A stretch of 63,240 nucleotides of DNA, counting the filler, from Aduncisulcus paluster (Eukaryota), in assembly GCA_024181965.1 (NCBI GenBank). It is 13 parts of 13 records of this genome, joined end to end, with 100 filler letters (N's around TTAATTAATTAA, not from the genome) between each part and the next. Parts side by side here need not be neighbours in the genome. Positions count along the whole stretch, not along the records: positions 59,444 to 63,240 come from BQXS01011439.1; 12 more parts are not named here. One strand, given 5' to 3'. Position numbers and translations under genes: made by a program. Of the stretch, positions 11,946 through 63,240 are shown in pieces. A model generated the notes under the pieces. That model searched no databases and was not told the DNA's origin. It saw only the letters and a program-made list of their open reading frames with translations. Position 1 is the stretch's first letter. Each line of letters opens with the position of its first letter.

Positions 11946-11968
11946 TAACTGAATCTTTTACTAGCTAA

Positions 11969-17659: not shown

Positions 17660-17760
17660 NNNNNNNNNNNNNNNNNNNNNNNNNNNNNNNNNNNNNNNNN
17701 NNNTTAATTAATTAANNNNNNNNNNNNNNNNNNNNNNNNNNNNNNNNNNNNNNNNNNNNG

Positions 17761-21112: not shown

Positions 21113-21367
21113 ACGTGAAATGGAACTATATCCAGTCCTGAGGGTTCTCCAAAAGCCTGAGATATCGAGAATAAACACCATGGCATGGAAATGAAAATAA
21201 AACATGTTTTTATCATTTACCAGCATTTAACTCGTTTATATGTGTTTTTTTAAATTTCCAATCTTATNNNNNNNNNNNNNNNNNNNNNNNNNNNNNNNNN
21301 NNNNNNNNNNNTTAATTAATTAANNNNNNNNNNNNNNNNNNNNNNNNNNNNNNNNNNNNNNNNNNNN

Positions 21368-21820: not shown

Positions 21821-22275
21821 TTTCGAATGTATTGAATTTGATCAAATTGTGATGATTCTAAAATAAAGCAAACCGATACTATTTATACCGTTAGCAAATT
21901 TACTTATATTACAATGCATCTTGAGATCGAATTTTTTGCAGTTGGTGTTATTCTGTTATTCTGTTCATGTAATCATGAAAAAACCTGCACAATCAATTTT
22001 ATTGTTCATATTAAATACTTTCTACAACTAAAATATGTTTATTTTGGATTGGATCATGAAGAAAAATATATCTCATGAAATAAGATAATATTGATATAGT
22101 GACCACATAATACTTTAATAAATTATAATAAGAATATTATTAAACACAATAAAAATTTATTTTAACAAGGTTTAAACAGAGTAACTTTTTGAAAATACTT
22201 TTTACCTGAAGAAGTTACTCCGTTGAGTATTTTCGCACCCGTCCTGAAAATCTGCTGAGAAAACCCAAAAATAAA

Positions 22276-46561: not shown

Positions 46562-46756
46562 GATCGAATTCTGGTTTGTCAACATCACTCAATATTTTTT
46601 ACAAAGAGATGCTCCCCAGTTTCTAAGACTGCTACATATTGGGTATCAAGACCCTTCCAGAGAAAGACAACAATAACATGTCTTCGAAAATCATTATGTG
46701 AATCCTTTTTTAGGGAAAGTGCATTATCCTATTCTCAAAGTTGGGGTTTAGCCCGT

Positions 46757-47275
46757 ATGGCCGATCACGCTCCCCAGACAATAGACAAGTATTATGTAAG
46801 AAATCGGTACTGCAAGACCTCAACTACTGGATTACTGCATAAATTCTTGACAAGACAATATAAGGAAGGAGAAGAGGAAGGAAGTTTTGAAGGAGAAGAG
46901 GAAGGAAGTTTTGAAGGAGAAGAGGAAGGAAGTTTTGAAGGAGAAGAGGAAGGAAGTTTTGAAGGAGAAAAGGAATCCTCCTTCGAAGATTGGTGGAGGG
47001 AAATGATGGAGGAAGAAAGGAAGGAAGGAGAAAGAGAAAGTGAAAAGGAAGGAGAAACGGAAGGAGAAAGGGAAAGGAAGGAAAGAGAAGTAGAAGAATG
47101 GTTGTTAGAAACGACCAGACTAAGAAAAGAAGACCGGAAAATTCTTAAACAATCAGATAAGAACCCGCTACAAAGTTTTCGAATTCTCAACAAATATTTG
47201 AATGGAGATGAAGAGGACTCAATTCAAAGTAGCAGTAGTGACACTGATTTCCAATCGTGTTCATCTAAACTGTAA
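46757..47275 (+). CDS. Acidic ORF downstream of the Gypsy pol, containing a 24-bp tandem repeat
   Basis: 172-aa ATG ORF. GAAGGAGAAGAGGAAGGAAGTTTT occurs 4 times plus a partial copy at 46865-46969 (EGEEEGSF). Confidence 0.4.
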   Translation: MADHAPQTIDKYYVRNRYCKTSTTGLLHKFLTRQYKEGEEEGSFEGEEEGSFEGEEEGSFEGEEEGSFEGEKESSFEDWWREMMEEERKEGERESEKEGETEGERERKEREVEEWLLETTRLRKEDRKILKQSDKNPLQSFRILNKYLNGDEEDSIQSSSSDTDFQSCSSKL

Positions 47276-47325
47276 TAAAAATAAAATTTCATAATATACA
47301 ATAAAAACTTTGATAACTTGTCTTA

Positions 47326-47371
47326 CTTCCTTTCTTCCTTCCTTCCTTCCTTCCTTCCTTCTTTCCTTCCT
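47326..47371. repeat. (TTCC)n microsatellite
   Basis: Imperfect TTCC run near the contig end. Confidence 0.85.
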
Positions 47372-47576
47372 TTTTGAACGTTGAACNNNNNNNNNNNNNN
47401 NNNNNNNNNNNNNNNNNNNNNNNNNNNNNNTTAATTAATTAANNNNNNNNNNNNNNNNNNNNNNNNNNNNNNNNNNNNNNNNNNNNCTCTAACTGATTTT
47501 GAGAACTTTGATTTCTGAGCAAGAGAAAATAAATCTGAAAACCAAAAAAAATCAATTCGTTTGTTCTTTTCAGGTG

Positions 47577-47758
47577 TTATTTCTTGATTCCTAATAATTC
47601 AACATCAAATATGAGAGTGGAATCAGGTGGAATAGAATCGCCAGCTCCACGGCCCGTGGCATGGACACCATAACCATAATCAGGATCGATTTGATTACAA
47701 TCGTGGCTCTTTCACCAACACTTAATGTAAGAAAGGCTTCATCCCAACCACTGATAAT
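47577..47758 (-). pseudogene. FKBP-type peptidyl-prolyl isomerase pseudogene fragment (C-terminal half)
   Basis: IISGWDEAFLTLSVGERATIVI then, after a 5-nt insertion, DPDYGYG..RGAGDSIPPDSTLIFDVELLGIKK*. The N-terminal half is replaced by GGAGTT repeats and the dispersed repeat. Confidence 0.85.
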
Positions 47759-47831
47759 CAGGAATTGGCATTGGATATAGAGTTGGAGTTGGAATTGGAG
47801 TTGGAGCGGGAGTTGGAGTTGGGGAGGAGGA

Positions 47832-48041
47832 GGAAATGTCATGTTCCATGAAGCATCAGGGGATTAGATTCGTAGCAGTATACAGACATATGTATACCAT
47901 CGTATTCCGAGTTCTTGATATTTTTGATTGTAAGCAAAAGCAAGTGAAAATAAACAGAAAAGCAAGGATAAGGATAGAAATGAAAAGCAGATATATCTAT
48001 ATTATTGAATAGCATTGAAATCGTTCATAAATGTTTTTAAC
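47832..48041. repeat. Dispersed ~210 bp repeat, copy 2
   Basis: Near-identical to 20902-21112, which is on a different contig. Confidence 0.9.
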
Positions 48042-48349
48042 TTTCCTATCGTGTCTATTGAAGGGTTGTATATTTGGTCATCTATTTTTCCTTGTGTTAA
48101 TAGCAAATTGTATGTTTACTATATATCATAGCTTTTGTTAAATGTACATTAAGAAATATTTTAATTGGATTCATTCAATTATATTCACTATATTGTGCTG
48201 TGTGGTCGTTTCTTGTTCGTTTTGTTCGTTTTGTTAGTTTTGTCTTTGTTTCTCGGACTATTCTCCTTGAAATTGGCAATTATTCTGTTTGTTCACAAAT
48301 ACTATTATTATTCTGCTTGTTTTTATTTTTTAGATAATATTCTATTCAA

Positions 48350-49455
48350 ATGAGTTCATCCACAGATTCTGTTATTCAAACTGTAGAACCTGTGTTTGTT
48401 CATAAAGGACGGTGGTATTGTTGTCCAATCTCCCTCGATGCCCCCAATATTAAGAGTGCGGAGTTTCCAACTATCAAAGCAATAGATGGAACAAGGAAGG
48501 AAGTGATAGATGGTACGATCAGAGTTCTAACGCACAAAATATAATGAAAGGAGGAGGTAATAGCGGACATTTTACCCATATTTCCATTCCTTTCTTTTCA
48601 TCTTCCCCAATGAAAGGGGCGTATATCTGTCTCCATCCAGGAATGTATTCTTCAACTCCATCGCATCTTATCTTCACTCTCACATCTTCAAAGGGTGATA
48701 AAACATCCAAAAAATACGAATTTCCTGGATTCTATCCTTATTGTTGGTATTTCCTTCCTGTTGATCTCCCTGATGTTGTTCTGTGTGAGATTACAGGGAA
48801 AGGAAGAAAGGAAGAGTGTTTTAGAATCGAATCCCTTATTTTCATTAGTAGAGAAGAAATCTCTGAAGAAATCAAATCTCGTGAAGCCAGAGAGAAACTA
48901 TGGTCTGAAGCTCCAGTTGTGAAACCAGAGTTTGTTAAGGAAGGAGATGAAGAATCTGAAGGTAGAGCTTCTATACCCATTCTACGTGATGATCCAAAGC
49001 TTGTAGATCCTTCATTCTCAATGGTTAAGTGCAAGAATGATGCGTATTGTAAGGAATCTAAGTATTATGATCGGAGTTCAAAAGCACAAAGAATGTTAAA
49101 AGGAGAAGACAAAGTATGGTTATCCCATATTTCCATCCCTTTCCCATCACCTAATCCCATGAAAGGTGCTTATATTTGTGTGAGGAAGGATCATAGTTCA
49201 CCCTCTCTTCTCTTCACTTTCACTGATTGTGATGGTAAGAAGACATCCAAGAAGTATGAATTTACATGTCCTAAACATCAGTATCAATGGCACTTCCTTC
49301 CTATTGATTTGGATAATATCGTATTGTGTGAGATTGAAGGGAAAGGAAGGTGGTGTAATAAGAATAGTCGATATTTCTGGATTTTCTCCCTAGTTTTTAC
49401 CCTGCCAGAGGAAACTATTGCAGCTGAACGATTATCTCTACTTCCATGGAAATAA
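48350..49455 (+). pseudogene. Lineage-specific two-repeat protein ('HISIPF..SPMKGAYIC' family), frameshifted near 48500
   Basis: Two ~150-aa units share V.P.FV, AQ.M.KG, HISIPF, PMKGAYIC, FT.T...G.KTSKKYEF and W.FLP.DL..VLCEI.GKG. A 1-nt deletion near AAGGAAGTGATAGATGG would join ORF 48350 to ORF 48544 via DRWYDQSSNAQNIMKG. Confidence 0.7.
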
Positions 49456-50799
49456 TTCAAGGATAATGATATTGTCTGTAAATGCTATTCTTTCATGAAG
49501 GAGATCCTGCATTTCGATGCCATTTCTCAGATTGCGTAGAGTGGGGGACTTTGTTCAATTTTCTATATCTCTTAAAATAACTCACTGCTATTGCTCCAAA
49601 GGTGATGGATATGCTTGCCCAATGTGATGCTGAACATGTAACAACTCATCATCGAAATTCAAATTTTCCAATATTTGCATGTTCCTGTCGGGCATTGAAA
49701 AAACTAACCCACATTTATAACATTGTTACTCAATATATACCTGCTTTATGGAATATGCATGCAGTTTGAAATGGTTTGTTCTATTTTTAGAATTTCTATT
49801 TTTAGAATTCAGATTTTTGAATTGGATTGTTTTGCCTGAAAAAAACATTAATAGGTAGAATTACAAAGTTTTTTTTGGGTTACTTGTCTGTATTTTCTCT
49901 TTGATCCATGTTCAACATGTTGAGTCGGTTAAATTCAAGTTTTTCGTGATTTTTTCTCATCAGATAATTAGAACATTAGAATACCATCAAGGTATTTTTT
50001 CTCTTTTGGTGTCAGGATTTGCTTCTCACATCTATATCCTCTTCATGGAGTTTTCTCTTCAAACAGTAACTTTGCCTCTGTATTACCCTTTCAAAAGAAT
50101 TCATGTTGCCTCAAATGTTCTCCTCTTCCTCTAATTTGATTCCAATAGAGCGATCTTCCTTCTATATTGAAGACCATGAATAAAATCGGTTAGAATCCAA
50201 CTTGGATCGTATCATCTATCTGAAGAAGCAATGAATTGTTCAAGAATGAGATTATCATCTCAAGGTTTTCAAAAAGGTGTATTATTTTCAACTGTAGTGG
50301 TGTAAGGTTTTAAAACTGGTTTGACCTCTATACCATAAAAGGCCTATTCCAGATATGGTGACCCTTACACCACTACACAACAACAAGATCAGTTTTCATA
50401 GCATCATGAATCATGATGTCATCACGCATGTTAGCTGAGCTAATAGCTCTATTTTACTCGCCTTTTGTCCTTTCAGATAAATTATCTGAGATAATCACTA
50501 AATTGAAGAGATCACCAATATCTTGAGTTTATTTAATTTGGTGGACTCAACTTCAATCAAAACGAAGAAATTGTTTTAATTTCCCGCAAAAACGTCACAT
50601 TCAAATTCAGTAACAAGTATTTTCATGCTCCACTAGTGGAAATTGGAGCTGAACATCTATATTTAGAAATTCTATTTTTAGAACACACATTTTTAAATCT
50701 GTTTAAAATTGGGTAAATCTCGGAAAATATTGATAAATAGCAGTGTTATTGTTTGTCTTTGACTTCCAATTCTTAAAGACACAACTCAGAAGCCACATA

Positions 50800-50945
50800 T
50801 TCTCATGATACGTATAGGAAGATGAAGAGATAGGAATGAAGATATGGGTAAATGCCACTATTAAACTCTTCTTTCATTGTACCTTGTACTCTAGAACTCT
50901 GACCGTACTCTTCACCGAATTTCCTGGATTCATCATTGCAATAAA
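50800..50945 (-). pseudogene. Decayed fragment of the same two-repeat family, in inverted orientation
   Basis: The reverse complement GTACGGTCAGAGTTCTAGAGTACAAGGTACAATGAAAGAAGAGTTTAATAGTGGCATTTACCCATATCTTCATTCC resembles 48513-48610. Confidence 0.7.
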
Positions 50946-51088
50946 CAAATCATCACACAAAAACAATATTTCTTCCTTCCTCACATCTAACATTTAAAGG
51001 ATATTTCATCGATGTGTATCCTATTTTTAGAAATTCTATTCTAATAGAATTGAAACTTACTAACTCAATAACATTTATCACGTAAACA

Positions 51089-53797
51089 TCATTTTTGAAC
51101 AGAAATATAAGCCAATCTTTGTCTTATCAGTCTTGATTCTTCCAATGACAAACAACATGATCGTTTAAAGCTTCGCCACACAGCTTCTCTCGCTGTTTCA
51201 TTCAAACATCCCAAGACACATCGTATCACAGCACATGATGCAGCAATAATCTTTGTATCCGAGTGGCTATCATGCTTGGATTCATGTGAACATCCATACT
51301 TGAGAATCGAACATTGAGACACCATTAGTAGAGCACACATAGTCGCTATCAACTTCTCTCCATACTTCGCATTACAAATAGAGATGGAAAAAGAGAGTAG
51401 AGGAAGCAAAGATATACTCAAAAAACAGAATGGCCGCTTCTTAGTGGATGAAGATCGCTTGAGTTCCTCAAGATGATTCAGAACAGGAGTAGGAGCGAAC
51501 GAGTGGGAATAGTATTGCCTCAAACAAGGAGTTCTAGACACCGAACATCCACATGGACACTGTGATACGTCAGATAAATAATATCCAGCCTGCTTGCCAT
51601 CAGACTTTCCAGATTCTTTTGATATCGATTTAGGAAATAACATCGAAGCTGGTCTTTCCCCCAAAGATTTGTCACGAATACCACCAATACTGACCCAAAG
51701 TTGTTCATTATCAATCAAATCTAAAAATATCGATTCGGACACTGACTTACGTCCAATTCCAAAAATAGATCCGAAATCGAATGATGACAGTTTCTCCATC
51801 TTTGAAGACACAGAAGGCGAACGAAAATCAACCTTCCCTGAGGAAATATGATGTGATAGTTGACACTGAATGGATTGAATGCGACCAAGGATGACCGATT
51901 CGGATTGAAAAATGTTGACGATCTCACTTCCAGCTTTTGAGATTTTTTCGTGAGATTCCTTGTTCTTGTGAGTTTCCCCTTCATCCCTCACCCATTCGGG
52001 TATTCCATCAAACTGCAGTAAACAGAAACAACACTCAACTTGAATGATATTCTCACAAACAGATAATAATAAATCACACGACGAGGATGAATAGTGAGTT
52101 TGAACAACACTAGAAGTTGCAATTGAGGAGCTAAAATCTTCATCTTTCTGTTGACAATATACAGAATCAGAGGCAGTTCCACACAGTGATCCACAGGTTA
52201 CCCACTTCAGACACGTTTGACAATACATCACAGCCAACGACAACTGAGAAAGGATAGACTGACGTTTATCATGGAGAGAAATGAGGTCAAACAAACTCAA
52301 CGCATATATTTGATCACGTTCTGCCTTGAGAATTGTCGTATCTACCGATATTCTTTCGTTAATTTGTTCCCATTCATGCATCCACTTTCTTTTGTTGACA
52401 ACATACGTCACAGTTTCTCTAAAACATGCTTTTGAACAAGCAGAACACCCCTTTAACACGAAAGATAACAAACCTTGGAAGATATTATCGGAGCTTGAGG
52501 ATGGGGAACACATGCATATGGGATATTTAATCTTCGCTAACACCCGTAAAAGAGCTTGTTGATCCACCATTGAACGCTGAGTCTTTTTCTGACGAAGAAT
52601 TGCAGATAGAGAGAGAGCACCAGGAACAACAGATTGAAACAAATCGCTCGTTCCATCTCCAAGAATCATTCGCGAATCTGGAATTTCTTCATTGCTTCTT
52701 AGTATAATTCTAAAAATAGAATCTGAGAGAGATGATAAACACAATCTTCTCAAGGGAAATGAATCACACAATAGGCATCTGGAAATAAGAGAGAGAAAAA
52801 CAGAAGTTGACGAGGCCAAGAGTTTATCAATGATAGTAACACCCGACTTTGATGATTTCTGTTGTTGTATTATTGATGGAGTCGAATTGACTGAGCTTGA
52901 AGGACAAATACTACTTAGACAGACAGAGCAGAGTCGGATGGCACAAGCTCGTTCAGAAACATCCCTTTGCAACAAAATAGCAATCAAATTCATTAAAAAA
53001 GAAGAGTTACCCTCAATTCTCCTTGTGAACAATTGAATCGGAGAAAATACAAGGGATTTTTCGTGTGGGAATGGGCAACAAAGGATCAAGAGAGAGGTTG
53101 TAGGATCAGGAGAATGTAAAAACAATAAAATGAAGAGAAATACAAACTTTTCCATAATATTAGACGGATAAGAGTCTGAAAAATTGGCTGAAATGGTTGG
53201 ATAATAGGTAAAACGGATAGGTTCGCTGATTGGTTTAGAAGAAGAACTCTTATTGGAAGCCTTTTTCACTGTAAGACCCGAATAATCCTCAAAATCATCA
53301 GATTCAGAATCAAAATACTCGAAAGAGATTGATTTTCGTGAGCCAATTTCAGATTCATCGCAGGAAGATTCATGGGATTCTTTGTAAGGATCATCTTCAC
53401 ACGATTCATTATTATTATTAATTTGGATTAAAAAATCACCAGAAATAACCGAAAGAAATGTGTGAAGAAGAGAGGATATATCAGTAATTGAAACTACGAA
53501 GAGGTGAATTAAGGAAAAACAAAGTTGTTGGTCGATCCAATCTTGGAGAAAAATATAACACATCAATGAAAGGATACTTGGAAACAAGGAAGAAGATTGG
53601 ATATTCGAGAGTTGAATAACATCAAGCAATACCGTTACTCTCTGGTTGTCTTTATGGTAAACTGAAAGGGACAAATCTTCATAAAGATTTGATACCAATT
53701 GTTCTTCACCTTCTTTTGAAAGCAATTCATCGGAGGAATTCTTTGACAGAGTATGTTTTTGCTGGATTAGTTGACTCGGAGAATAATGATAAGACAT
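51089..53797 (-). CDS. Large hypothetical Ser/Leu/Cys-rich alpha-helical (possibly HEAT/ARM) protein
   Basis: Uninterrupted ORF of more than 900 codons with no recognisable motif. The start is uncertain (ATG near 53797, MSYHYSP; ORF track starts at 53896). Confidence 0.6.
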   Translation of the reverse strand: MSYHYSPSQLIQQKHTLSKNSSDELLSKEGEEQLVSNLYEDLSLSVYHKDNQRVTVLLDVIQLSNIQSSSLFPSILSLMCYIFLQDWIDQQLCFSLIHLFVVSITDISSLLHTFLSVISGDFLIQINNNNESCEDDPYKESHESSCDESEIGSRKSISFEYFDSESDDFEDYSGLTVKKASNKSSSSKPISEPIRFTYYPTISANFSDSYPSNIMEKFVFLFILLFLHSPDPTTSLLILCCPFPHEKSLVFSPIQLFTRRIEGNSSFLMNLIAILLQRDVSERACAIRLCSVCLSSICPSSSVNSTPSIIQQQKSSKSGVTIIDKLLASSTSVFLSLISRCLLCDSFPLRRLCLSSLSDSIFRIILRSNEEIPDSRMILGDGTSDLFQSVVPGALSLSAILRQKKTQRSMVDQQALLRVLAKIKYPICMCSPSSSSDNIFQGLLSFVLKGCSACSKACFRETVTYVVNKRKWMHEWEQINERISVDTTILKAERDQIYALSLFDLISLHDKRQSILSQLSLAVMYCQTCLKWVTCGSLCGTASDSVYCQQKDEDFSSSIATSSVVQTHYSSSSCDLLLSVCENIIQVECCFCLLQFDGIPEWVRDEGETHKNKESHEKISKAGSEIVNIFQSESVILGRIQSIQCQLSHHISSGKVDFRSPSVSSKMEKLSSFDFGSIFGIGRKSVSESIFLDLIDNEQLWVSIGGIRDKSLGERPASMLFPKSISKESGKSDGKQAGYYLSDVSQCPCGCSVSRTPCLRQYYSHSFAPTPVLNHLEELKRSSSTKKRPFCFLSISLLPLLSFSISICNAKYGEKLIATMCALLMVSQCSILKYGCSHESKHDSHSDTKIIAASCAVIRCVLGCLNETAREAVWRSFKRSCCLSLEESRLIRQRLAYISVQK

Positions 53798-54128
53798 TCC
53801 TAACAATATGTTTGTGATATTTTTACAGCAATATATTTCAATGGAAACAAAAATTAATCGAATCATCGAAAGAGTAGGAAGATTGGTGGAAAACAATATT
53901 GGGAGTTAAGATTCAAATATTTTCTAGTATTAGTTGAATAATATCATTTAACATCACCCTAAAATGAGTTTTACTCATTTTTCACGTCCTATAATATGAT
54001 GTATTTGCAGCAAAGACGATTTTTTATTTATTTTTGCTGGAAGTTGAAAATAACAAAGAAGACATGTCAAAAGTATTAAAATAGAGATAAAATAAAAACA
54101 ATTGGCTAAATTTATTGAATAATTAACA

Positions 54129-55340
54129 TTACTCCATCTTACGGGGCTTCTTTCTCTCAACAATCTTATCGAGGATACGAGCAGAGTCCTTAAACCTAGT
54201 GATCATCATCATAGAAGCAATGATGTAAGGTTTCCACTGAGCTTCCTTGTACATGGCAACACGATGGCGGTCAAAGACAGAAGCAGCGAATTCACCATGC
54301 TTGCAAGAAACACCGGTGATATCAGCAGGGAGACAGTGCATGGCGAGACAGTCAGGAGTGTCAGCACCAGGCTTAGTGAGCTTGGCAAGTTCTTCAGTGT
54401 ATTCCCAATCCATATGCTTGGCATTCTCAGCAAGAGCTTTCTTTTCGAGCTCATCCATCTGAGGGGTACCATCAGCAAATCCAGCATCGATGAGGGCAGC
54501 CTTCTCGATCATGACAGAGGCAGGGGCCCAGGACTTGACGTAAGCGACATCAGCATCCTTGAGTCCAGGCTCCATAGAAGAGTGGACAGAGAGCTTTCCA
54601 CCGCCAATCTCAGCCTGCTTCTTGGCCTCTTCCATAACGTGGGGAAGGAGGTCGTAACCCTCAGGGTAACAGAGGTGAACATCAGCTCCGAATCTGGGTA
54701 ACAAGGCGATGATTCCTTGAGGAACAGAAAGAGGCTTACCGTATGAAGGACTGTAACCCCATGACATGCAGATCTTCTTTCCCTTAAGATTCTCAACGCC
54801 ACCGAAATGGTCGACGAGGTGAGCAAGATCACTCATAGATTGAGTAGGATGGTCCTCATCACATTGAAGGTTAACGATAGAGGGACGTTGGGGGAGAACT
54901 CCTTCTTTGAATCCAGCGTCAACGGACTTGGCAACTTCAACCTGGTAGGTGTGACCTTTACCAACAAATTTATCGTCACGGATACCAATGACCTCAGTAA
55001 GGAAGGAGATCATGTTGGAGGTTTCACGGACGGTTTCTCCATGGGCAATCTGAGATTTTTTCTCATCAAGATCAGACACAGTGAGACCAAGGAGAGTAGC
55101 GGCCTTTGCAAAAGAGAAACGGGTACGAGTGGAGTTGTCACGGAATTGAGACACAGCAAGAGCACCGGAGAAACAGGAACAGTCAATGTTCTCTTTGTAG
55201 AGGATCTTAAGAGCCTCAGCGATCTCAAGAGTAGCATGGATCTCGTCTTGAGTTAAATCCCAGGTACGGAGCCAATCTTTGTCGTAAAGATCAATTTTAC
55301 GAGCTCTAAGAGTTTCAATAATCTTCTTAACCTTCTCCAT
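54129..55340 (-). CDS. ygeW: Knotted carbamoyltransferase, YgeW family (bacterial type)
   Basis: FRDNSTRTRFSF, SQIAHGETVRET, IGIRDD, NLQCDEDHPTQSMSD, WGYSPSYGKPLSVPQG, YVKSWAP, MHCLPADITGVSCKHGE and KPYIIASM are YgeW-specific extensions of the STRT/HPTQ/HCLP carbamoyltransferase motifs. Confidence 0.92.
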   Translation of the reverse strand: MEKVKKIIETLRARKIDLYDKDWLRTWDLTQDEIHATLEIAEALKILYKENIDCSCFSGALAVSQFRDNSTRTRFSFAKAATLLGLTVSDLDEKKSQIAHGETVRETSNMISFLTEVIGIRDDKFVGKGHTYQVEVAKSVDAGFKEGVLPQRPSIVNLQCDEDHPTQSMSDLAHLVDHFGGVENLKGKKICMSWGYSPSYGKPLSVPQGIIALLPRFGADVHLCYPEGYDLLPHVMEEAKKQAEIGGGKLSVHSSMEPGLKDADVAYVKSWAPASVMIEKAALIDAGFADGTPQMDELEKKALAENAKHMDWEYTEELAKLTKPGADTPDCLAMHCLPADITGVSCKHGEFAASVFDRHRVAMYKEAQWKPYIIASMMMITRFKDSARILDKIVERKKPRKME

Positions 55341-55672
55341 TGTAACAAAAACTGGAATAATTTTGTAGACTTTCTATGAATACTGCTTCATCACAGTCAA
55401 TGGAAACCTTTTCAAACCAATAACAAATTCAAAACAATAATATGATATAAATTCATCCAGCTTTACGTCAATATTTTTCTCATTTTCGTCACAAGAACCC
55501 GACAGGGGTTCAAACTCAAAATAAAGGAAAAATAAGGTGGCATAAAGATATTTTATTGTTTGGAATATCAGTGACGCAAAATAAATATAAAAAAATTCTC
55601 AAAAACAAAAGATATCATCTCCAATGATTATCAAGGGAAGATGGCTCATCAACCTCGGGATAATGGACAAAA

Positions 55673-55914
55673 TTAGAAAGGTTTGAAGGTCCATCCGCAT
55701 GCTAGACCAGCGGCAAAACCAAGAACGACAAGGGCAATCATTAAAATGATGGTTGAGGGAGTAATAGTTTTCACAACAATGGGTTGAGAATGACTATGAG
55801 GCTTTTCTTGTGGAATGGAGTCCGAGACAGGGACAGGTTTAATTTGAGAAGATCTTCCAGACATTGGTATTTCGTATACGGGCAAAAAAAGATCTGTCAC
55901 AAATCGAAACAACA
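55673..55914 (-). CDS. C-terminal fragment of a protein with a C-terminal transmembrane anchor (5'-partial)
   Basis: Frame is open from the contig end; hydrophobic TIILMIALVVLGFAAGLACGW lies just before the stop. Confidence 0.5.
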
Positions 55915-56614
55915 NNNNNNNNNNNNNNNNNNNNNNNNNNNNNNNNNNNNNNNNNNNNTTAATTAATTAANNNNNNNNNNNNNNNNNNNNNNNNNNNNNN
56001 NNNNNNNNNNNNNNGAGAAAAGACAAAAACAAGCCAGGCGTCTATACAGAACCGTCAGAGAAGCAAAATAAAGCCTGAGATTTCGATTCATTAATAAAAT
56101 AGAAAATGTATATTTAAACAAAAAAATAATTAATATTATTCGGTAATTATAAAGCAAAAAGCATTTCGATAAATTGGCAATCCGAGATTTTAATTTAAGA
56201 CAAAGAATAGTATTAAAGGAATATAACAAAAAAATTATTCAAAATTTTGACATTAATTGGACTGGACATCAAAGTTAGATAAGACATATTGGTATTCGAT
56301 ACACAAACAAAAGAATAAATATTAAATGAAAAATGTTTGGAAACAAAACAAAACAAACAAAAAATGTTGGGTGGGTTTCCAATTCAAAAAGAAGAAAAAC
56401 ATAATAATAATAATAGCGAGCCATAAATCCGGAAGAAAGAAGAAGAATACACAAGTCAACAAAAGTCAGAAATGAGCTAAAAATAGTTATTGGGCTAAAA
56501 ATAGAGCTGAGAGGATCAGAGACGAAGGGTGAAGATATGGATGTATGCTATAAAATAATTTGTTTGTCTGAGGAATAGTCAAAATTCAAATATAAATTGT
56601 CAAATCTGCCCAAA

Positions 56615-58378
56615 TTAATGAACACAAAATAGCATACCATTGTCATATCTTGCAGTATCATCCTCCCACATTGAACGATTACATTCACACTCGGCAACAT
56701 TGGAGGAAACGGCAATATAACCGTCTTGAACCGAATAATAGACTTCTTCCTCCTTGGTTAAACACATATTCATGTACCCAACAGCAATACTGGTGAACCA
56801 AGACCACCCACCATTGAAATAGTTGCTGAGAAATGGTGCTAAATATAGAGTTGATGCTATATTTAGAATTACTTCCCACTTTGAGAGATCGTTATCACTG
56901 GAATAAGGTGATGAGGTTGAGAAAATACTATTAATAGAAGATTTCTGCTTGGAGGAATAAACGATTGAATCAAACCCTTCGAACCCTTGGACAATATTGA
57001 GAAAAGCATGGTCTGAAATCACTAAACCTTTGAAAGTAACGGTAGTCAAGAATTCTTTTGAAAATACATCAGTGCCATTCGAGTCAACGCCTCTGATTCG
57101 GATAAATAAATCGGTGTAGGTCATGCTAAATCCGTCACAGAAAATGGTTGGGAGATCGGGAAGGACTGGATCATAATCAGGATCAACAAAGAGCCAATCC
57201 ACCTCGATATCACATCCATCACACAACAAAAGCTCGGGAATCTGCATTGATTCATACGTGTCAGCTTCAAAGAAAGGCGATAACGAAGACAATCCTTCAG
57301 TATCTGCGGTGCACCCGTAACGACCTTCAACACAGGATAATTTGTATTTTGTTCCAGTGAAGCCACCTGAAGAATTCCAATAGCTTCGATTTGTCACCGC
57401 TTGGGTGAACCAGGCGCTGTGAATCAGTATAGGTGAAAGGAAATAGGTAAAATCGGTATTTGTGAGCACTTCTGGAAAAGTGGGATACCACCCAGGGTCA
57501 TAATTGGCCATTAATGGGTCTAAATTGAGGTTAGAATCATCAAATGAGTCATCCACACGGATAGAATACCCACTATAGTAAGGAGCTGTGATATAACTAT
57601 CTGATATGACAAATCCAGGTGAGCCAGACATGACAAAATAGGTAATATCTGGCCAGTGTGTATAGTGAGAAGCACCACCTGAGTGATCAAGCTGCTCGTT
57701 AACGGCTATAGTGAACTGTTGAGACAATAGCGAGGTGAACCAAGGAACAAGAGTGGATTCAAGCACATAAGTGAGAGATTGAATAAGAGGATTAACGTCC
57801 CCAACAAATACTATTTGGAAAAACCCAATTGATAATTTTAATGTGTCAAGTTGAGGAATATCATCATATCCACAAGAATTGTCACCACAGGATTGGTCAG
57901 TTGAATCTGCCTTTATATCAACAGAGAACGTTGCAAAGACAGAAACATCTTCAAGAGTCAAGGTAATCCCTCCAGAATATTGAGAATAGGGGTAAGTCAA
58001 CAGTTTAATACAATAATCGGCAGAAATCACAAATCCACCTCCATCAAGAGTAACACTGACATCTTTTCCTGCTAAAAATGATATATATGTTTGATTGTCG
58101 TCAAAAAACGTAAAAGATTCGATATCAATATCGTTTAATTCAAATGATCCCTCGGCTATTCCCAAAGAAATATCAAAACTCACATCAGGAATATCAATTG
58201 AATTGACTATTTCAACAATAAAAGGTTCTAGACCAACTGAAATCAAATTATAGAGCCCAGACTTGGTTATTACAAATTCTAAATCACTAGTCGGTAAATC
58301 AATCTCATTAAAGACAAAAATGAAAAGGGAATAAACAATAAATAAAGAAAAAAATAATTTTAATCGAAAAGTCTTCAT
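56615..58378 (-). CDS. Secreted BPI/LBP/CETP (TULIP)-like lipid-binding protein
   Basis: Signal-like MKTFRLKLFFSLFIVYSLFIFVF, then FVITKSGLYNL...IVNSIDIPDVSF...GSFELNDIDIESF, the typical start of a BPI N-terminal domain. Confidence 0.65.
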   Translation of the reverse strand: MKTFRLKLFFSLFIVYSLFIFVFNEIDLPTSDLEFVITKSGLYNLISVGLEPFIVEIVNSIDIPDVSFDISLGIAEGSFELNDIDIESFTFFDDNQTYISFLAGKDVSVTLDGGGFVISADYCIKLLTYPYSQYSGGITLTLEDVSVFATFSVDIKADSTDQSCGDNSCGYDDIPQLDTLKLSIGFFQIVFVGDVNPLIQSLTYVLESTLVPWFTSLLSQQFTIAVNEQLDHSGGASHYTHWPDITYFVMSGSPGFVISDSYITAPYYSGYSIRVDDSFDDSNLNLDPLMANYDPGWYPTFPEVLTNTDFTYFLSPILIHSAWFTQAVTNRSYWNSSGGFTGTKYKLSCVEGRYGCTADTEGLSSLSPFFEADTYESMQIPELLLCDGCDIEVDWLFVDPDYDPVLPDLPTIFCDGFSMTYTDLFIRIRGVDSNGTDVFSKEFLTTVTFKGLVISDHAFLNIVQGFEGFDSIVYSSKQKSSINSIFSTSSPYSSDNDLSKWEVILNIASTLYLAPFLSNYFNGGWSWFTSIAVGYMNMCLTKEEEVYYSVQDGYIAVSSNVAECECNRSMWEDDTARYDNGMLFCVH

Positions 58379-58860
58379 GGTGATCGAAATACAGCGAAGA
58401 AAACGTCTCAGTTCAAAATCGACACTGTTCTTGACTTGATCAATGAGCATTTATTTTAAATCTCGCAAATTAAACCAAAATTTTACCGAATTGAATGTTG
58501 AGTCAACATATTTATTTTACGTTTCGTCGAGTATTGCACAAAGCTTCTATCATTAAAAATTTAGCGAGAACCTGTTACGTCCTATCATAGAATGAAATGA
58601 TTTCAACTGAGTCTGTCGATTATCGTGAAGGTGATCTCCGATCTAAATTCCTTCCTTGGAGCCGCTCAATTTGTTTCAAACGAGAATATCGCTGTTCAAA
58701 AAGGCCATCTCAGATGACAAGGCTTGTCAAAAAACAGGCATATTAAATTTCCAAAATAGCACTCTAACAATGGTAATAGTAAGGGATAATATTATATTAT
58801 ATTTTCATTCTTTCTCAGTCTCTAAGAATAAGATCGAATTTGCGGAGGAAACTCAACCTT

Positions 58861-59343
58861 TCATTTAGGTTTAAACCGACTCAGAACATGTTCATCTTTC
58901 CCTTTGCTCGCCGATTTTTTTCTGTTTCTCTCCGATTGTGCCTTATATACTTCTTTTTTGCGTTCCATTCTCATTTCTTCTCTTCTAACGTGTTGCTTGC
59001 TTGCAAATCCTTTCTTGGCTCGAGTCTTTGTTCTATTTTCGAATCTTTCCATTCTTTTTTGATGCTTTTCTTCCATTTGTTCTTCCTTTATATTTTCCAG
59101 TTCCTTTCTTACCAAACTAACCTCACTTCTTGTCGTAGCTCTAAGACCGAACCTTTCCCCGCCTCCAACGTCTGCCCTAACGCCAAGTCCACTCATTTTG
59201 ATCATGTCAGGCTTCAATTTCTCAAGTAAAGATTTAACTTCGCATTCTTGGAATTGTTTCTTGTCCATGTGTGGATTGTAGAAAAATGAATCATATAATG
59301 GATCACTAACATTAGGAACGGGGATGCAGCGAATCCCTCCGTC
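58861..59343 (-). CDS. Basic K/R/E-rich C-terminal fragment of an unknown protein (5'-partial)
   Basis: The frame stays open from the contig end (DGGIRCIPVPNVSDPLYDSFFYNPH-MDKKQ...) to the stop at 58861. Confidence 0.45.
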   Translation of the reverse strand, partial: DGGIRCIPVPNVSDPLYDSFFYNPHMDKKQFQECEVKSLLEKLKPDMIKMSGLGVRADVGGGERFGLRATTRSEVSLVRKELENIKEEQMEEKHQKRMERFENRTKTRAKKGFASKQHVRREEMRMERKKEVYKAQSERNRKKSASKGKDEHVLSRFKPK

Positions 59344-59443
59344 NNNNNNNNNNNNNNNNNNNNNNNNNNNNNNNNNNNNNNNNNNNNTTAATTAATTAAN
59401 NNNNNNNNNNNNNNNNNNNNNNNNNNNNNNNNNNNNNNNNNNN

Positions 59444-62306
59444 TGCTTCGTGCAAGGGATTCAATTGCTCCTTGAATGATTTTTGTACCTTGATCAACGT
59501 CTCCTTCTTCCTCAAGTTCTTTCTTCAACGCTTTTTCTGTCACTAATTGCCGTGATAAGCTGAGTAGATCTATTTTAGATTCTAAAACATCAGAAATGAT
59601 ATCTTCACTCAATTCTCTTCGTAGAATCTTATCACTTCTATCCTCAATGGTTGTAGTCGCAGTTTCTTTGATTGAAATGAACTGACAGCTTTTAGTGTCT
59701 TCCATAATATCATCATCGTACATGTCATAACGTTTCAACATTTCATTTCGCCCAAGAGTCTTGCAGACGAATTGAAAGTTATGATTAGTACTAAAAAATG
59801 TTTTTGCTTCCCCTGACATTGCCCTCCTATGACAACAAGGCATTCCAACACAGTGTGTTTTGACATCATGACACTCTTCGGCAAGTATTTTACCCATATA
59901 TTGGGAAGGAATCTGCTCATGGAAGTCTTTACCCTTTTTCACATCATTAATGATGTTGTCACACGTCTTTCTCCACCATTTTGATGCAATGTCCAACAGA
60001 AGTTCCACGGTTCTTGATAAAGTGGCTCGGTTGGCTCCAAATTTTTTTATAATCTCTTTCTTTATGGCTGAGTTCGATGTTTCGGCCCTTGAGCTTGCTG
60101 TTTGACCAGCTGTGAATACTTTTGCACGGAAGCAACCTAAAAATTTGGTTCCTTTTGCAGCGATAAGATCTTCTAGATTTGAGATAGCAAGACTTTTCTT
60201 CTTCTTGGAGGATTGTTGTAATGTTTCCGTCCATTTTTCTTCGCTTTTATGGGGATATTTCCTCGCCAGAAGTCTTATCGTATCTTTTAGCGTCACACAA
60301 GAAAACATCAACTCTTTCATAACTAACTTTTCTTGTTTTGACAAGGAAGGACGTCTTGAAAGATGAAAAGAACAAAGAAAGGGATGATCTGTTCTTTCTT
60401 CAAAGAGATCTGTTAGTGTTGGACTTTCGTCGGTAATCACTGAATTGAATCTCTTCCTTTTTCGGCATAGAATATCAATTCCCAAAAGCGCAGCTCTTAG
60501 CTCTTCTTTCCTCTCCCCTTTAGAATTGCAGATAATGAAGCCAATAAGAAGATTATTGCCTGTCGGAGCTACAGTGGTCAATGGATATAGAATCTGTCCA
60601 CTTCTGATGGTGGAATAAGTACCATCCACAAATAGGACTGGAAGCAAGTTGTCATCGATCATCCTTTCGAATTGAACACAAATACATAGGAGGGATTTGA
60701 GGAAGTTGTCCTCATTGTACAACACAAACGTGTGCATTGTCTCAGTTTTGTTTAGAATTGAGATTGTTCTCTCCATCTCTTCTCTCTCATCATCATGATA
60801 TGCTTTGAAACTATCATTATAGAGTCGTGATACTCGTTTCTTGTGTTCATATGACAATGTGGTTTTCAATTCAGCTTCTATTTCTTCAACACATTGATCC
60901 AGTTTCTTGGTTTGTACTTGTTCTTGTATAAGAGATTTGATTTTGGCTGTTCTTAGGCATAAAGAAATATCTTCTTTCTCCTCAATGCAATTCATGTCAA
61001 TGCAACACTGAGGATCGTGATTGTTCTTGCTTTCTCCCACTTTGTATTCACCGTCTCCATTTGAATATAATACCTTTGCAGTGAGTTTAATCCTATATTT
61101 ACAATCTCTACACTGGGTACACAATACAGACCCTGAAATCGAAATTGGCTTTGGTAGTTGTCTACGTTCCTTCGCGTTTACATCAAATCTCCCCTTTGCC
61201 CCTTCATAACTAAATCTCATCCGGAAATTGAGTTGTTTCCTTAAATACTCTGCAAGCCCTTTCCTCGTTGTCTCTATGTGTCCTAAGGTACCTTTGACCT
61301 TCTCTTCCATCGAGTTCCTTATTAAATCAATGTTTATGTCGTCTTTCGGTCTCTTTGACTCGGTTTCAGACTGGAATTTTGTACTACAAAGCCTAGTCGA
61401 CATGATTTTGGAATCACTATGGCCATGGGATGAATGAACATCAATAACACTATCATCATTAGTCGTAATTTCAATCCCATCCCACCCATGATCATCAGAT
61501 GTGGGGATTTCTTTCTTACTAAGAAGTCTAGAAGACTCGGAGGACTCGGAGGTGATATAGTTTGCCGTCGCAATGATCGCATATTTGAAGACGTTTTCCA
61601 TTCTTGTAATCGATGAGTGTATCTTTTTTAAATGCTCTTCGATTTGAGCTGTGGATGATTTTGCTTCAACCGAGAGTTCTGAAGAATATCTCCTTTTTAG
61701 AGATGGTTCTGATTCAATTTCTTGGCAAAATTGGTCCTTTGGAGATTTCGTTATTGGTGAAATGGGTCTATTTAGAACCTCAATTTTTTCCTTGGCTTTT
61801 GGTCGCAAATCATGAGAAATAAAAACGGTTTCACAAAAGAATTGCATCGATGAACTAAGGTTTTCAAGGTAATTCATACCTCCACTAAGGTAATGGTTGA
61901 AGGGGGATAATGGAATCCCATTTGTTCGCAATATAAGTATAACTACCTTATCTGATGTAGGAAATCCAACAATTTCTGCAAGATCAAAAATTTTCCCATT
62001 TATACTTTGAATTATTACAATGGTTTGGCTGAATAATCTAGAAAGTGCCCAAACTTCTGGTGTGCCGGCATATTTGTTTTTTTTGCGGTCGGAAATATAT
62101 ACTTTAAGAGATATTTTTCTAATTTCATCAAAATTATTATAGTAATCTGGATTTCTAATCATTTCCTCATGCACCATGTCTCGGAGCGAATGGAACTTTA
62201 TATGCTGTTGAGTTGCCTTTAAAAAGGCATGATATAAGCAATATCCATCTCCTGGAACGTTTTCAATTGTGATTCCATGATGTTTAGCTAGTTTGTCTTC
62301 ATCCAT
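59444..62306 (-). mobile_element. Mutator (MULE)-like transposase with an N-terminal OTU cysteine protease domain (3'-partial)
   Basis: OTU: VPGDGYCLYHAF, YAGTPEVWALS, NHY. FAR1/WRKY-like: CRDCKYRIK...NNHDPQC. MULE core: LFVDGTYS, YPLTTVAPTGNNLLIGF, VITDESPTL, FLCSFHL, TASSRAETSNSAIK. SWIM-like: GMPCCH. Confidence 0.85.
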
Positions 62307-62599
62307 TATCTATCTTGCGCACCAATCAATAATATTTTTAATAATCATTATTCTCGGATATAAATATGATTAATATACAAAATTATTATAATAAAATCTG
62401 CTTTTATTGGTTATTTTTGTATTTTTTTGAAAGTTTTGTTTTTGCTGGCTTCTTGACCTATTATTTTCATTTTTAATGAAGTTTTAGCCATAAATATACA
62501 AAAGTTATAAAGAATTTAGAGGTTTTATTATGAATTTAATCTATATTCAAGGCGATAACATTTTAACGGTATTTTTGACCGAAATTGGCGATATGAACA

Positions 62600-62779
62600 A
62601 TAGGGGAATTTCCGAATAGGGGGGGTATTTCGAAATAAAAGGGTAATAAACTTTATTAGTTAGGAATAAACTTTATTGGCGACCAATTTCGAAATTGACC
62701 CCCAATTTCGAAATAGCTAGGGAATTAATGAAATTGCGCAGCAATTTTGAAATTGGTCGGCAATAAAGTTTATTGGTGG
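62600..62779. repeat. Inverted-repeat/palindrome cluster, probable transposon terminus
   Basis: 62665-62697 and 62742-62774 are 33-bp inverted repeats with 2 mismatches. AATAAACTTTATT and ATTTCGAAAT units occur several times. Confidence 0.8.
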
Positions 62780-62795
62780 TTTGTACAGCAAATCG

Positions 62796-63240
62796 ATGTC
62801 ATTTAGAGCATCATTGGATTTAGAAAGGGCTTCTCAAGCGATACAAGATGCTGAGATTGTTGATCATATGGATCATTTGATGACACATCCCTTAGAACCC
62901 CAAAGCCGACGCAGCCAACATGGATGTAAGTGTATATACATTCGAGAAGCTTATATGGAAGCAAATGATGAAGATTTTAAGTTCTTTTTTGGCGTTAACC
63001 GTGCAGAATACGGGTACATTGAAGGTAACTGTTCCGATTGCTTTATGCCTTCAAGACGAGGCAGAAGAGCCAAATTGACACCACGAGATTCTCTGTTATG
63101 GTCATTAAGGTGGCTGAGAAGCGGAATTAATATGAAAGAGCTTGCTAAACTAAGCTATGTAAGCTATGTAACGTTTCATCGGGCTATCTGGCAGGCCTTA
63201 GTAATTATGGAGGAACAAATTGTTCCAAAATTATTATTTA
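62796..63240 (+). mobile_element. N-terminus of an ISL2EU/PIF-Harbinger (IS5-related) transposase; runs off the window and is absent from the ORF track
   Basis: Manual translation: ...DEDFKFFFGVNRAEY...RRGRRAKLTPRDSLLWSLRWLRSGINMKELAKLSYVSYVTFHRAIWQAL, which is the HTH pattern that precedes DDE_Tnp_4 domains. Confidence 0.65.

Follow-up and report, generated by a model that had tools for sequence, protein, structure and literature searches.

A Mutator-like transposase with an N-terminal OTU domain in Aduncisulcus paluster, probably from a mobile transposon family

Transposons that carry ubiquitin-type proteases

Ubiquitin and ubiquitin-like proteases have been recruited repeatedly by DNA transposons and viruses. 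In Medicago truncatula, transposases of Mutator-like elements (MULEs) carry a C-terminal papain-like protease of the OTU superfamily (PMC1702500; Babu, Iyer, Balaji, Aravind 2006). Other MULEs, from Arabidopsis, melon, rice, maize, hydra and lancelet, bear the SUMO protease Ulp1, or peptidase C48 (PMC2836005). OTU domains are also known on Ginger1 transposases and Helitrons (PMC2836005, PMC9741609), and an IS5-like transposase in Trichomonas is another recruiter of a ubiquitin-type protease (PMC2836005). The VTD domains of Helentrons are active deubiquitinases that cleave ubiquitin chains, and according to the same source none of the OTU domains of transposons has been assayed enzymatically (PMC9741609).

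Here we describe an open reading frame (ORF) from the free-living fornicate protist Aduncisulcus paluster, a relative of Giardia, in which an OTU domain precedes a Mutator-type transposase. The window, that is, the whole stretch of DNA analysed, is 63,240 nucleotides long and is an artificial chain of small contigs with 12 linkers of N runs around TTAATTAATTAA. The ORF lies on a contig of 3,797 bp at 59444-63240. We read this stretch as a 3'-incomplete copy of an autonomous-type MULE with an OTU domain fused to its transposase. The sequence evidence suggests that the family is mobile, or recently was, and that the ORF is not a domesticated gene. For identity and mobility jointly, we put the probability at about 0.75.

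The Medicago transposases and the Aduncisulcus protein (P0001) share a general plan. Each combines, in one ORF, a Mutator transposase (DDE core, with a zinc-finger DNA-binding domain and a SWIM motif that are both putative in P0001) with an OTU-superfamily protease, and both appear to come from recently expanded families (PMC1702500 for Medicago). The protease is C-terminal in the plant proteins, whereas in the metamonad protein it is N-terminal and comes with the start codon. The plant arrangement (PMC1702500) fits the remark in the initial annotation of this locus that MULE proteases are mostly separate or downstream modules. Since the distant relatives that sequence searches found for P0001 lack an OTU domain, the fusion is probably independent of the Medicago case.

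Ulp1 MULEs likewise pair a Mutator element with a cysteine protease of the type that acts on ubiquitin-like modifiers (judged by sequence for P0001), but the protease family is Ulp1 (C48) in those elements and OTU in P0001 (PMC2836005). A Pfam search of P0001 for Ulp1 (peptidase C48) gave no match at E <= 1. Like P0001, the Ginger1, Helitron and Helentron proteins are DNA transposon proteins with a fused OTU or other deubiquitinase domain (PMC2836005, PMC9741609). They differ in the transposition enzyme, which is an integrase-like DDE protein in Ginger1, RepHel in Helitrons and a MULE DDE transposase in P0001. Furthermore, the Ginger1 OTU domain is C-terminal and that of P0001 N-terminal. In the ESM Atlas, a plant cluster automatically named 'OTU domain-containing protein' contains MULE in 93% of its members, according to the cluster label and statistics.

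The pairing of a protease with a MULE therefore has precedents; what is new is the N-terminal position of the OTU domain and the metamonad host. The literature covered, to which subscription journals and Repbase Reports mostly do not belong, describes neither an N-terminal OTU domain on a Mutator transposase nor such an element in metamonads.

Architecture of the OTU-transposase ORF

The ORF occupies 59445..62306 on the minus strand, with its ATG at 62306, and comprises 954 sense codons by ORF listing and translation. It is free of introns and intact to the contig end at 59444, where the frame is still open; given the base composition of the contig, 954 codons without a stop would arise by chance with a probability of ~1e-31. 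Because the frame meets the contig end, P0001 lacks its C-terminus and the element its 3' end. Beyond that end lies an assembly linker (N run, TTAATTAATTAA, N run; 59344..59443, no strand), which is not biological sequence. The 3' truncation of the element is thus a product of the assembly and not of biology.

The initial annotation had described a single uninterrupted ORF of about 950 codons, and the open frame agrees with this, on the minus strand and with no stop codon. All the motifs that it named (GDGYC, NHY, VDGT, ITDE, CxxH and RAET) are present in the translation. As for the domain order, the N-terminal OTU domain and the in-frame MULE core are upheld, while the zinc DNA-binding and SWIM labels found no Pfam match. 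Judged from the sequence, one ORF encodes an N-terminal OTU domain, a low-complexity linker of ~220 residues, a putative zinc DNA-binding region, a DDE core and a SWIM-like cluster.

The OTU cysteine-protease domain (residues 1-157; 61836..62306, minus strand) is identified by Pfam, Atlas structure and motifs. Pfam OTU (PF02338) scores 33.2 bits on the whole of P0001 and 35.3 bits (E 1.9e-8) on residues 1-157 alone, against a cut-off of 23.3. GDGYC spans residues 19-23 and NHY residues 137-139, and the OTU motif positions, all on the minus strand, are Asp20 (62247-62249), Cys23 (62238-62240; catalytic by motif) and His138 (61893-61895). The Pfam alignment of the isolated domain covers residues 18-113 and ends there, so the His box at 137-139 is placed only by motif and by the Atlas structural alignment. 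We thus find the proposed OTU domain confirmed by a profile above cut-off, with D20 and C23 in their places and H138 as the probable catalytic His.

Structural comparison points the same way. The ESM Atlas model of residues 1-156 matches OTU models with a TM of 0.69-0.73 by query, and OTU appears in 26 of the 30 feature matches. An AlphaFold2 model of residues 1-160, built without an alignment, had a pLDDT of 34.2, too poor for use. Weak PDB sequence matches (E 0.017-0.3) were to OTUD3 and to nairovirus L OTU domains, and the GDGYC box aligns with the Cys boxes of OTUD3 and of the host OTU1. In a word-based search with residues 1-157, the only close OTU relatives were the element's own derivatives (2 matches from 11 candidates).

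The host OTU1, a YOD1-type deubiquitinase at 39824-41305, lies in the same window but, as the window is a chain of contigs, on a contig unrelated to the OTU-MULE ORF. It appears to have the fold and the Cys and His boxes in common with the element's OTU domain. However, host OTU1 consists of UBX-like, OTU and C2H2 zinc-finger domains, and the element's domain aligns with it only in the Cys box (7/15 identical residues, E 0.005). This agrees with the earlier view that the two are clearly different.

The MULE DDE catalytic core (residues 540-750; 60057..60689, minus strand) is recognised from relatives, from aligned catalytic columns and from the Atlas. Its motifs are FVDGT (559-563), ITDES (624-628), CSFH (645-648) and RAETS (740-744). 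On the minus strand, these supply D561 (60624-60626) and D626 (60429-60431) as the first and second D of the DDE triad, C645 (60372-60374) and H648 (60363-60365) of the CxxH motif, and E742 (60081-60083) as the final E. Pfam MULE (PF10551) matches P0001 with 16.1 and 17.1 bits (E 0.016 and 0.0077), below its cut-off of 27.6. The MULE assignment therefore needs support from other evidence.

Such evidence comes from distant relatives. An exhaustive phmmer search with residues 340-870 returned nine proteins at E <= 0.001, and six of these are distant relatives with 25-30% identity (E 1.1e-9 to 9.4e-5). Pfam MULE is found in five of the six, above cut-off in two (P0009, 81.4 bits; P0010, 31.3 bits), and SWIM reaches its 19.6-bit cut-off in three, with P0009 just under it at 19.1 bits. 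None of the six has an OTU domain. D561, D626, C645xxH648 and E742 share alignment columns with the D, D, CxxH and E of P0006-P0010. The best 10 Atlas matches with a Pfam family all belong to one family or clan, MULE, and the structure rows of the Atlas consist of FAR1 or MULE clusters, FAR1-like ones leading, with a TM by row of at most 0.60. An AlphaFold2 model of residues 340-954 from an 8-row alignment (A1) was too poor for use (pLDDT 39.6), and a PDB profile search with A1 gave 0 matches at E <= 1. We conclude from the distant MULE/SWIM relatives, the aligned catalytic residues and the Atlas look-alikes that, on sequence grounds, the transposase part of P0001 belongs to the Mutator superfamily. 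The DDE core proposed at the outset thus stands by alignment with MULE relatives, while Pfam MULE taken alone stays under its threshold. Likewise, the check by HMM and structure prediction that had been suggested succeeded with the OTU profile (33.2 and 35.3 bits) and with the Atlas, but not with the MULE profile or with our own AlphaFold models.

Between the protease and the transposase lies a linker (residues 158-375; 61182..61835, minus strand) in which Ser, Glu, Ile and Lys are abundant and no known domain is recognised. Residues 151-340 (n=190) include 32 S, 19 E, 19 I and 18 K, and Pfam found no family in the linker except one chance-level match. The putative zinc-chelating DNA-binding region (residues 389-435; 61002..61142, minus strand) has Cys396, Cys399 and Cys402 at one end and His430, Cys434 and Cys435 at the other, and aligns with the CxxC...HxH region of the relatives P0006, P0008 and P0010. 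Its only Pfam match is a chance-level one to CpXC (E 0.03). By analogy with the domain described in PMC1702500, it may be a MULE DNA-binding domain of the WRKY-GCM1 type.

The SWIM-like Cys/His cluster (residues 812-828; 59823..59873, minus strand) is a pattern in the sequence, with CHDVKTHCVGMPCCH at residues 812-826. Pfam SWIM in the relatives P0006, P0008, P0009 and P0010 sits further C-terminal than this cluster. No Pfam match in P0001 was obtained for SWIM, FAR1, DBD_Tnp_Mut or other zinc-finger DNA-binding models; the zinc-binding and SWIM labels are putative and follow from Cys/His patterns (396-435 and 812-828) that align in part with relatives. To judge from a deletion derivative, P0013, the missing end of P0001 would add ~119 residues with a Cys-rich tail. 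The tail of P0013 may resemble a CXC domain; Pfam found nothing in it at E <= 1.

Next to the element, an ORF at 62796-63239 resembles by eye a Harbinger-like helix-turn-helix. It has no Pfam match even at E <= 10.

Copies and deletion derivatives

Within the window, no other copies of the element were found: tblastn with P0001 matched only its own ORF, and a blastn comparison of the contig with the remaining window sequence yielded just two chance-level matches of 22-35 nt. The copies reported here come from two other sources, the proteins named Aduncisulcus paluster and the contigs of the public sequencing runs X1 (presumed DNA) and X2 (presumed RNA, like X3). All close relatives of P0001 are named Aduncisulcus paluster.

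Several of these relatives are internal-deletion derivatives. In the genomic gene model P0012, and likewise in P0013 of a transcriptome-derived set, residues 1-48 are joined to residues 925-954, with 100% identity in both parts. Among the derivatives, only this one retains the 5' end of the element; it begins at the same ATG, and its 48 OTU residues are all identical to those of P0001. At the joint, GAAA is common to both sides, a microhomology of 4 nt. We rejected the reading of the 49-924 deletion as an intron, since GT..AG does not result wherever in the 4-nt overlap the cut is set. The joint 59533>62162, with 4 shared letters, occurs in contigs of both X1 and X2, and the X1 contig with this joint has a depth of only 24.8. 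Three more joints are found in X1 (59484>62207, 60240>62244 and 60023>60476, the last with 31 filler letters), and two were seen only in X2 (59714>59802 and 62148>62308). P0002 consists of residues 282-394 (81% identity) and 865-954 (68%).

Other copies have decayed. A second full-length variant is dead, with Y503*, E200* and frameshifting insertions. Its 27 listed ORF differences comprise 11 synonymous and 16 non-synonymous changes, a count that gives no selection test because the copy is dead and 60 further differences fall outside the listing. Two fragments, P0003 (73% identity) and P0014 (65%), are older; both have E where P0001 has D561. The dead variant and the old fragments lie on different contigs. 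The initial annotation had held that a single copy without TIRs would indicate a domesticated gene; the deletion derivatives, the dead variant and the old fragments show that the copy is not single.

Only one intact full-length form was seen in the X1 and X2 contigs, and the proteins and run contigs searched yielded no further copy in which the OTU domain is whole. The conservation of the fusion is therefore read from the first 48 shared residues only. Thus, the expectation that other copies should not lack the OTU domain is borne out in part, by the P0012/P0013 derivative, which retains the 5' end and with it these 48 residues.

The element's 5' non-coding and subterminal stretch (62307..62602, minus strand) is delimited by contig matches and flank divergence. 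In record 16, a variant contig, the match covers 62348-62602, and the sequence beyond it is unlike the window. In other contigs the match begins only at 62598 and extends rightwards, and to the left of it they show two or more different neighbours. The 5' end of the element is thus probably at ~62598-62602. As the contig stops at 59444, short of the 3' end, only the 5' boundary is estimated. The summed depth in X1 is 36,090 in bin 59444-59570 and 44,107-59,255 in bins 62238-62745, against 1,145-4,083 in the interior bins of the ORF (60333-62110), so that the ends are ~30-fold deeper than the interior, although contig depth does not equal copy number.

Alternative readings and the role of the OTU domain

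A fragmented assembly, a repetitive element and a ~30-fold gap in depth between ends and interior are a setting for assembler error, in which an OTU gene and a transposase gene might have been joined into a chimera. This is extremely unlikely here: the frame is continuous over 954 codons, record 7 of X1 spans 61654-62118 with 1 difference and no break from OTU domain to linker, and record 15 of X2 spans 61943-62191 with 0 differences. The derivatives, moreover, fuse the OTU start in frame with the transposase tail, and therefore both ends belong to one unit. The several internal-deletion derivatives, with microhomology or filler at their joints, bear also on whether the ORF is a domesticated, host-serving gene of MULE origin, like FAR1/FHY3, MUSTANG or ZSWIM. 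Together with the dead variant and old fragments on different contigs, the far deeper ends, the divergence of flanks past ~62602 and the intact DDE residues, often lost in domesticated MULE genes, they make domestication very unlikely, even though a recently domesticated or a dying family would also show one intact full-length form, the element is seen without its 3' end and hence without a TIR/TSD pair, and FAR1-like clusters head the Atlas structure rows.

MULEs capture fragments of host genes, and the OTU domain could be a passenger, a host or foreign gene fragment captured in Pack-MULE fashion, in frame by chance and with no role in transposition. Its absence from all six distant MULE relatives, which makes the fusion lineage-specific, would fit. 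We nevertheless regard a passenger as unlikely, since the OTU domain appears whole, provides the start codon and has kept D20, C23 and H138. Nor is it a recent copy of the window's host OTU1, given that the Cys box alone aligns, and the word-based search recovered only the element's own derivatives. Furthermore, proteases of the deubiquitinase type were recruited independently by Mutator, Ginger1 and Helitron elements, which speaks for a benefit of such domains to transposons. Their use might also lie in processing. OTU-like viral proteases cleave after Gly-Gly, and the sole Gly-Gly in the 954 residues (LSGG, 140-143) comes right after the His box; between the OTU domain and the DNA-binding region lies a low-complexity linker of ~220 residues. 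The ORF would then encode a polyprotein, from which the OTU domain cleaves itself or the linker off the transposase. However, one GG is at chance level (~1.6 expected), its position 4 residues from the predicted catalytic His is awkward for cleavage in cis, and cellular OTUs are isopeptidases. Self-processing was proposed for the Medicago MULEs with a C-terminal OTU-superfamily domain (PMC1702500), but according to PMC9741609 it has been demonstrated for no transposon OTU; for P0001 we consider it quite unlikely.

We therefore return to the reading of the stretch as a copy of a mobile MULE with a fused OTU domain. Beside the observed domain order, catalytic motifs, copies and derivatives, we infer an enzymatic activity, a substrate and a transposition benefit for this domain. 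By analogy with other protease-bearing transposons, the OTU domain may be an active isopeptidase supplied in cis with the transposase. Its target would be ubiquitin, or a ubiquitin-like modifier, attached either to the transposase itself or, at the donor or target site, to chromatin or repair factors, and removal of this modifier would stabilise the transposase or steer repair. We propose this deubiquitinase mechanism tentatively, at a little under even odds. The internal-deletion derivatives are of the type left by abortive gap repair after excision.

A more extensive scenario is possible but doubtful. In it, the OTU domain would be an active deubiquitinase required for transposition, the family would still be active in a culturable free-living fornicate, and the transcribed in-frame derivative, in which nothing but the Cys loop of the OTU domain and the Cys-rich tail remains, would regulate the full-length enzyme. 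A sign of recent activity is that a deletion derivative is 100% identical at its flanks and is also present in the transcriptome-derived protein set.

For annotators, this family counsels caution, as draft-genome models such as P0002 fuse transposon remnants with host-like sequence. With P0001, a metamonad joins the list of hosts of protease-bearing MULEs. The element has value as a test case, having an intact, intron-free ORF and an N-terminal protease that is easy to delete or mutate. If the OTU domain is indeed needed for transposition, this element would offer a compact single-ORF system for understanding why DNA transposon superfamilies recruit ubiquitin-type proteases.

OTU domain and transposase in a single reading frame

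The last contig of the window (59444-63240, 3,797 bases) encodes P0001, in which an OTU domain lies in frame at the N-terminus of a Mutator-type (MULE) transposase. This structure, proposed in the initial annotation, is upheld by a Pfam OTU match, MULE-bearing relatives, and aligned DDE residues. The single uninterrupted frame of about 950 codons is also confirmed. It runs on the minus strand from an ATG at 62306 to 59445 and comprises 954 sense codons, a length with a chance probability of ~1e-31 given the base composition. The frame is nevertheless cut by the contig end and contains no stop codon, and thus the C-terminus of P0001 and the 3' end of the element lie outside the window. A contig from the public sequencing runs (X1, X2, X3) extends past 59447 in the same frame, where 30 letters read RGGQVHRGT against RGAQVHRGT in P0013, a protein from a transcriptome-derived A. 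paluster set (8/9 identical). The ORF therefore continues beyond the gap.

The window does not represent a continuous piece of genome but an artificial concatenation of small contigs. TTAATTAATTAA flanked by N runs occurs 12 times (0.05 expected by chance), forming 12 N...TTAATTAATTAA...N linkers (8818-59399) between contigs roughly 1.2 to 8.4 kb long; 20-N gaps lie at 2779-2798, 6718-6737, and 23944-23963. Adjacency across a linker is biologically meaningless, which applies to every finding on the window. The A. paluster draft genome is described as highly fragmented (N50 4.6 kb, 39.1% GC; PMC9933649).

The OTU domain retains its Cys box and probably its His box. Pfam OTU matches residues 18-112 of the whole protein (33.2 bits, cut-off 23.3) and scores 35.3 bits on residues 1-157 alone (curated cut-off 23.3). 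The annotated Cys box (GDGYC, residues 19-23) and presumed His box (NHY, residues 137-139, beyond the end of the Pfam alignment) both stand in the sequence. The sole Gly-Gly of P0001 (LSGG, 140-143; ~1.6 GG expected by chance) directly follows the His box. The ESM Atlas model aligns residues 1-156 to OTU models (TM 0.69-0.73 by query), and of the 30 clusters nearest by features, 26 carry OTU. Solved OTU structures (OTUD3, nairovirus L proteins, and yeast OTU1) are weak sequence matches, with E 0.017 to 0.3.

A host OTU1/YOD1-type deubiquitinase with UBX-like, OTU, and C-terminal C2H2 zinc-finger domains is encoded at 39824-41305 on the plus strand; this cellular gene is unremarkable, and its contig is unrelated to that of the transposon. 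The element OTU had been called clearly distinct from it, and indeed only the Cys box is common to both (7/15 residues identical, E 0.005). The element domain is therefore no recent copy of the host gene.

We accept P0001 as a member of the Mutator superfamily, although its Pfam MULE score (residues 557-649, 16.1-17.1 bits) lies below the curated cut-off of 27.6, because its distant relatives carry MULE and SWIM domains, the catalytic columns align, and ESM Atlas matches agree. An exhaustive phmmer search with residues 340-870 against 1.84 billion representatives gave nine matches at E <= 0.001: three short, close fragments (identity 73-94%) and six distant proteins (25-30%, E 1.1e-9 to 9.4e-5). 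Five of these six match MULE, two of them above the cut-off (P0009, 81.4 bits; P0010, 31.3 bits). SWIM reaches its 19.6-bit cut-off in three and falls just under it in P0009 (19.1 bits); one relative has no Pfam match. D561 (FVDGT), D626 (ITDES), C645xxH648, and E742 (RAETS) share alignment columns with the relatives' D, D, CxxH, and E, and a CxxC...H pattern N-terminal in the transposase part is shared with relatives. In ESM Atlas, the best ten matches bearing a Pfam family all share the MULE family/clan, and neighbouring structures belong to FAR1 or MULE clusters (TM by row up to 0.60).

The annotated MULE core stands in its catalytic residues and its relatives, but not in its own Pfam score. 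Similarly, the SWIM-like motif and zinc-binding region are present as Cys/His patterns, but no SWIM or DNA-binding Pfam model matches P0001 itself. A profile search of the PDB with the alignment of P0001 and its relatives gave no match, and our AlphaFold models of parts of P0001 (pLDDT 34.2 and 39.6) were too low in confidence for use.

A hypothetical A. paluster protein of 556 aa (P0011, no Pfam match) is very distantly related to the C-terminal half of the transposase, with 29% identity across query residues 325-500 (E 9.4e-5). This hints that the genome may harbour more than one MULE-like lineage.

Derivative copies and mobility

The element family is, or recently was, mobile, and its copies look like products of cut-and-paste transposition and gap repair. 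The window contains no other copy. The initial annotation would have read a single copy without TIRs as a domesticated gene, but the element is not single-copy: there are deletion derivatives, a dead variant, and old fragments. In both P0013 and P0012 (a gene model from a 14,107-bp genomic contig), residues 1-48 are joined straight to 925-954, and both segments match the window ORF at 100% identity. GAAA is common to both sides of the 48/925 junction at the DNA level, and no cut placement yields GT..AG, which rules out an intron. The loss of 49-924 is therefore a deletion, of the type that interrupted gap repair leaves after excision. P0013 continues for 119 further residues (its residues 79-197, which lie past the end of the window's contig), likely the missing transposase C-terminus to judge from sequence. 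Pfam finds nothing in this tail at E <= 1; its Cys-rich stretch has a CxC..C..CxC..C..CxC..C spacing reminiscent of CXC-type zinc clusters.

P0002, a hypothetical A. paluster protein of 1352 aa, begins with a transposon remnant and then passes into a long, unrelated sequence rich in FG repeats, with GFGQ/FG-type repeats at its end. The remnant retains residues 282-394 (81% identity) and 865-954 (68%) without the intervening part, and is a second, older deletion derivative; the model reflects exonisation of a transposon fragment or else an annotation error. P0003 and P0014 (73% and 65% identical to P0001), in both of which Glu replaces D561, are older fragments.

Run contigs also contain joints that link two window positions with the DNA between them absent. 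Joint 59533>62162, with four shared letters, is in contigs of X1 and X2; X1 also has 59484>62207, 60240>62244, and 60023>60476 (with 31 filler letters). A second full-length variant approximates the window form in depth (e.g., 1,314 versus 1,266; 1,286 versus 1,269) and is dead, since it carries insertions of 11, 1, and 8 bases as well as Y503* and E200*. None of the further copies recovered spans the entire OTU domain; solely the derivative with the same ATG and first 48 OTU residues may speak for conservation of the fusion.

Summed X1 depth is 36,090 in bin 59444-59570, 44,107-59,255 in bins 62238-62745, and 1,145-4,083 in bins 60333-62110; contig depths of this kind do not give copy numbers, and the DNA origin of X1 is a guess. 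This pattern fits the joints and hints that numerous short derivatives have their ends in common with a few long copies. The 5' boundary lies at about 62598-62602: a variant contig departs from the window sequence after 62602, and others, which have two or more different left neighbours, match from 62598 rightwards only.

Sequence flanking the element

Dense inverted and direct repeats of ATTTCGAAAT-like units occupy 62608-62774, between both transposase-like ORFs, and include a 45-nt arm pair (62665-62709 / 62730-62774, 87% complementary). They form the deepest part of the contig in X1 (59,255), have several loose ends at 62636 and 62682-62684, and could represent a MITE or terminal repeats belonging to the neighbouring element. 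A 148-codon ORF (62796-63239, plus strand) points away from the MULE ORF and is still open where the contig ends. On visual inspection it looks like the helix-turn-helix portion at the N-terminus of Harbinger/PIF-type transposases; Pfam returns nothing for it even at E <= 10. Its region is repeated, with depths of about 11,900-23,200 in X1 and about 45,000-50,300 (extremely abundant) in X2, and a 367-letter X3 contig under another organism label equals 62758-63124 with zero differences. On the neighbouring contig, minus-strand ORFs of 611 codons (56615-58450) and 135 codons (Lys/Glu-rich, 58861-59268) are present.

Known pairings and the possible role of the OTU domain

Mutator transposases paired with OTU-type proteases are already known. 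Recently expanded Medicago MULE transposases are reported to carry a C-terminal OTU-superfamily protease (PMC1702500), and an ESM Atlas plant cluster auto-named 'OTU domain-containing protein' has MULE in 93% of members. Ginger1 transposases with C-terminal OTU or Ulp1 domains, Mutator elements with Ulp1 in plants, hydra, and lancelet, some Helitrons with OTU, and a Trichomonas IS5-like transposase fused to a C19 ubiquitin hydrolase are likewise described (PMC2836005). Unlike in Medicago, the protease of P0001 is N-terminal and provides the start codon, and the host is a metamonad rather than a plant. None of the six distant MULE relatives carries OTU; therefore, the fusion looks lineage-specific, and it seems independent of the plant fusion. 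We found no description of an N-terminal-OTU Mutator arrangement in the literature within scope, which excluded Repbase Reports and most subscription journals.

A single ORF encodes, in order, an apparently intact OTU triad and a linker, followed by a zinc-binding region, the intact DDE core, and a Cys/His cluster. The OTU domain may be an isopeptidase delivered together with the transposase, which would take ubiquitin or a ubiquitin-like modifier off the transposase, or off chromatin or repair factors at the transposition site. We give this role a probability of roughly 0.4. The OTU could instead be a captured passenger without function, which we consider unlikely, or, somewhat less probably still, it could process its own polyprotein, as put forward for the Medicago MULEs (PMC1702500).

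Two further explanations concern the locus itself. That P0001 is a domesticated gene is improbable, because derivative copies of the element exist. Least credible of all is an assembly chimera of OTU and transposase, since independent contigs span the OTU-linker region (X1 record 7, 61654-62118; X2 record 15, 61943-62191). Helentron VTD domains are reported to be active deubiquitinases, and the same study notes that no assays exist for OTU domains of transposons (PMC9741609). The A. paluster element is chiefly of value as a compact and, it seems, recently active system in which to test the role of transposon-borne deubiquitinase-type domains.
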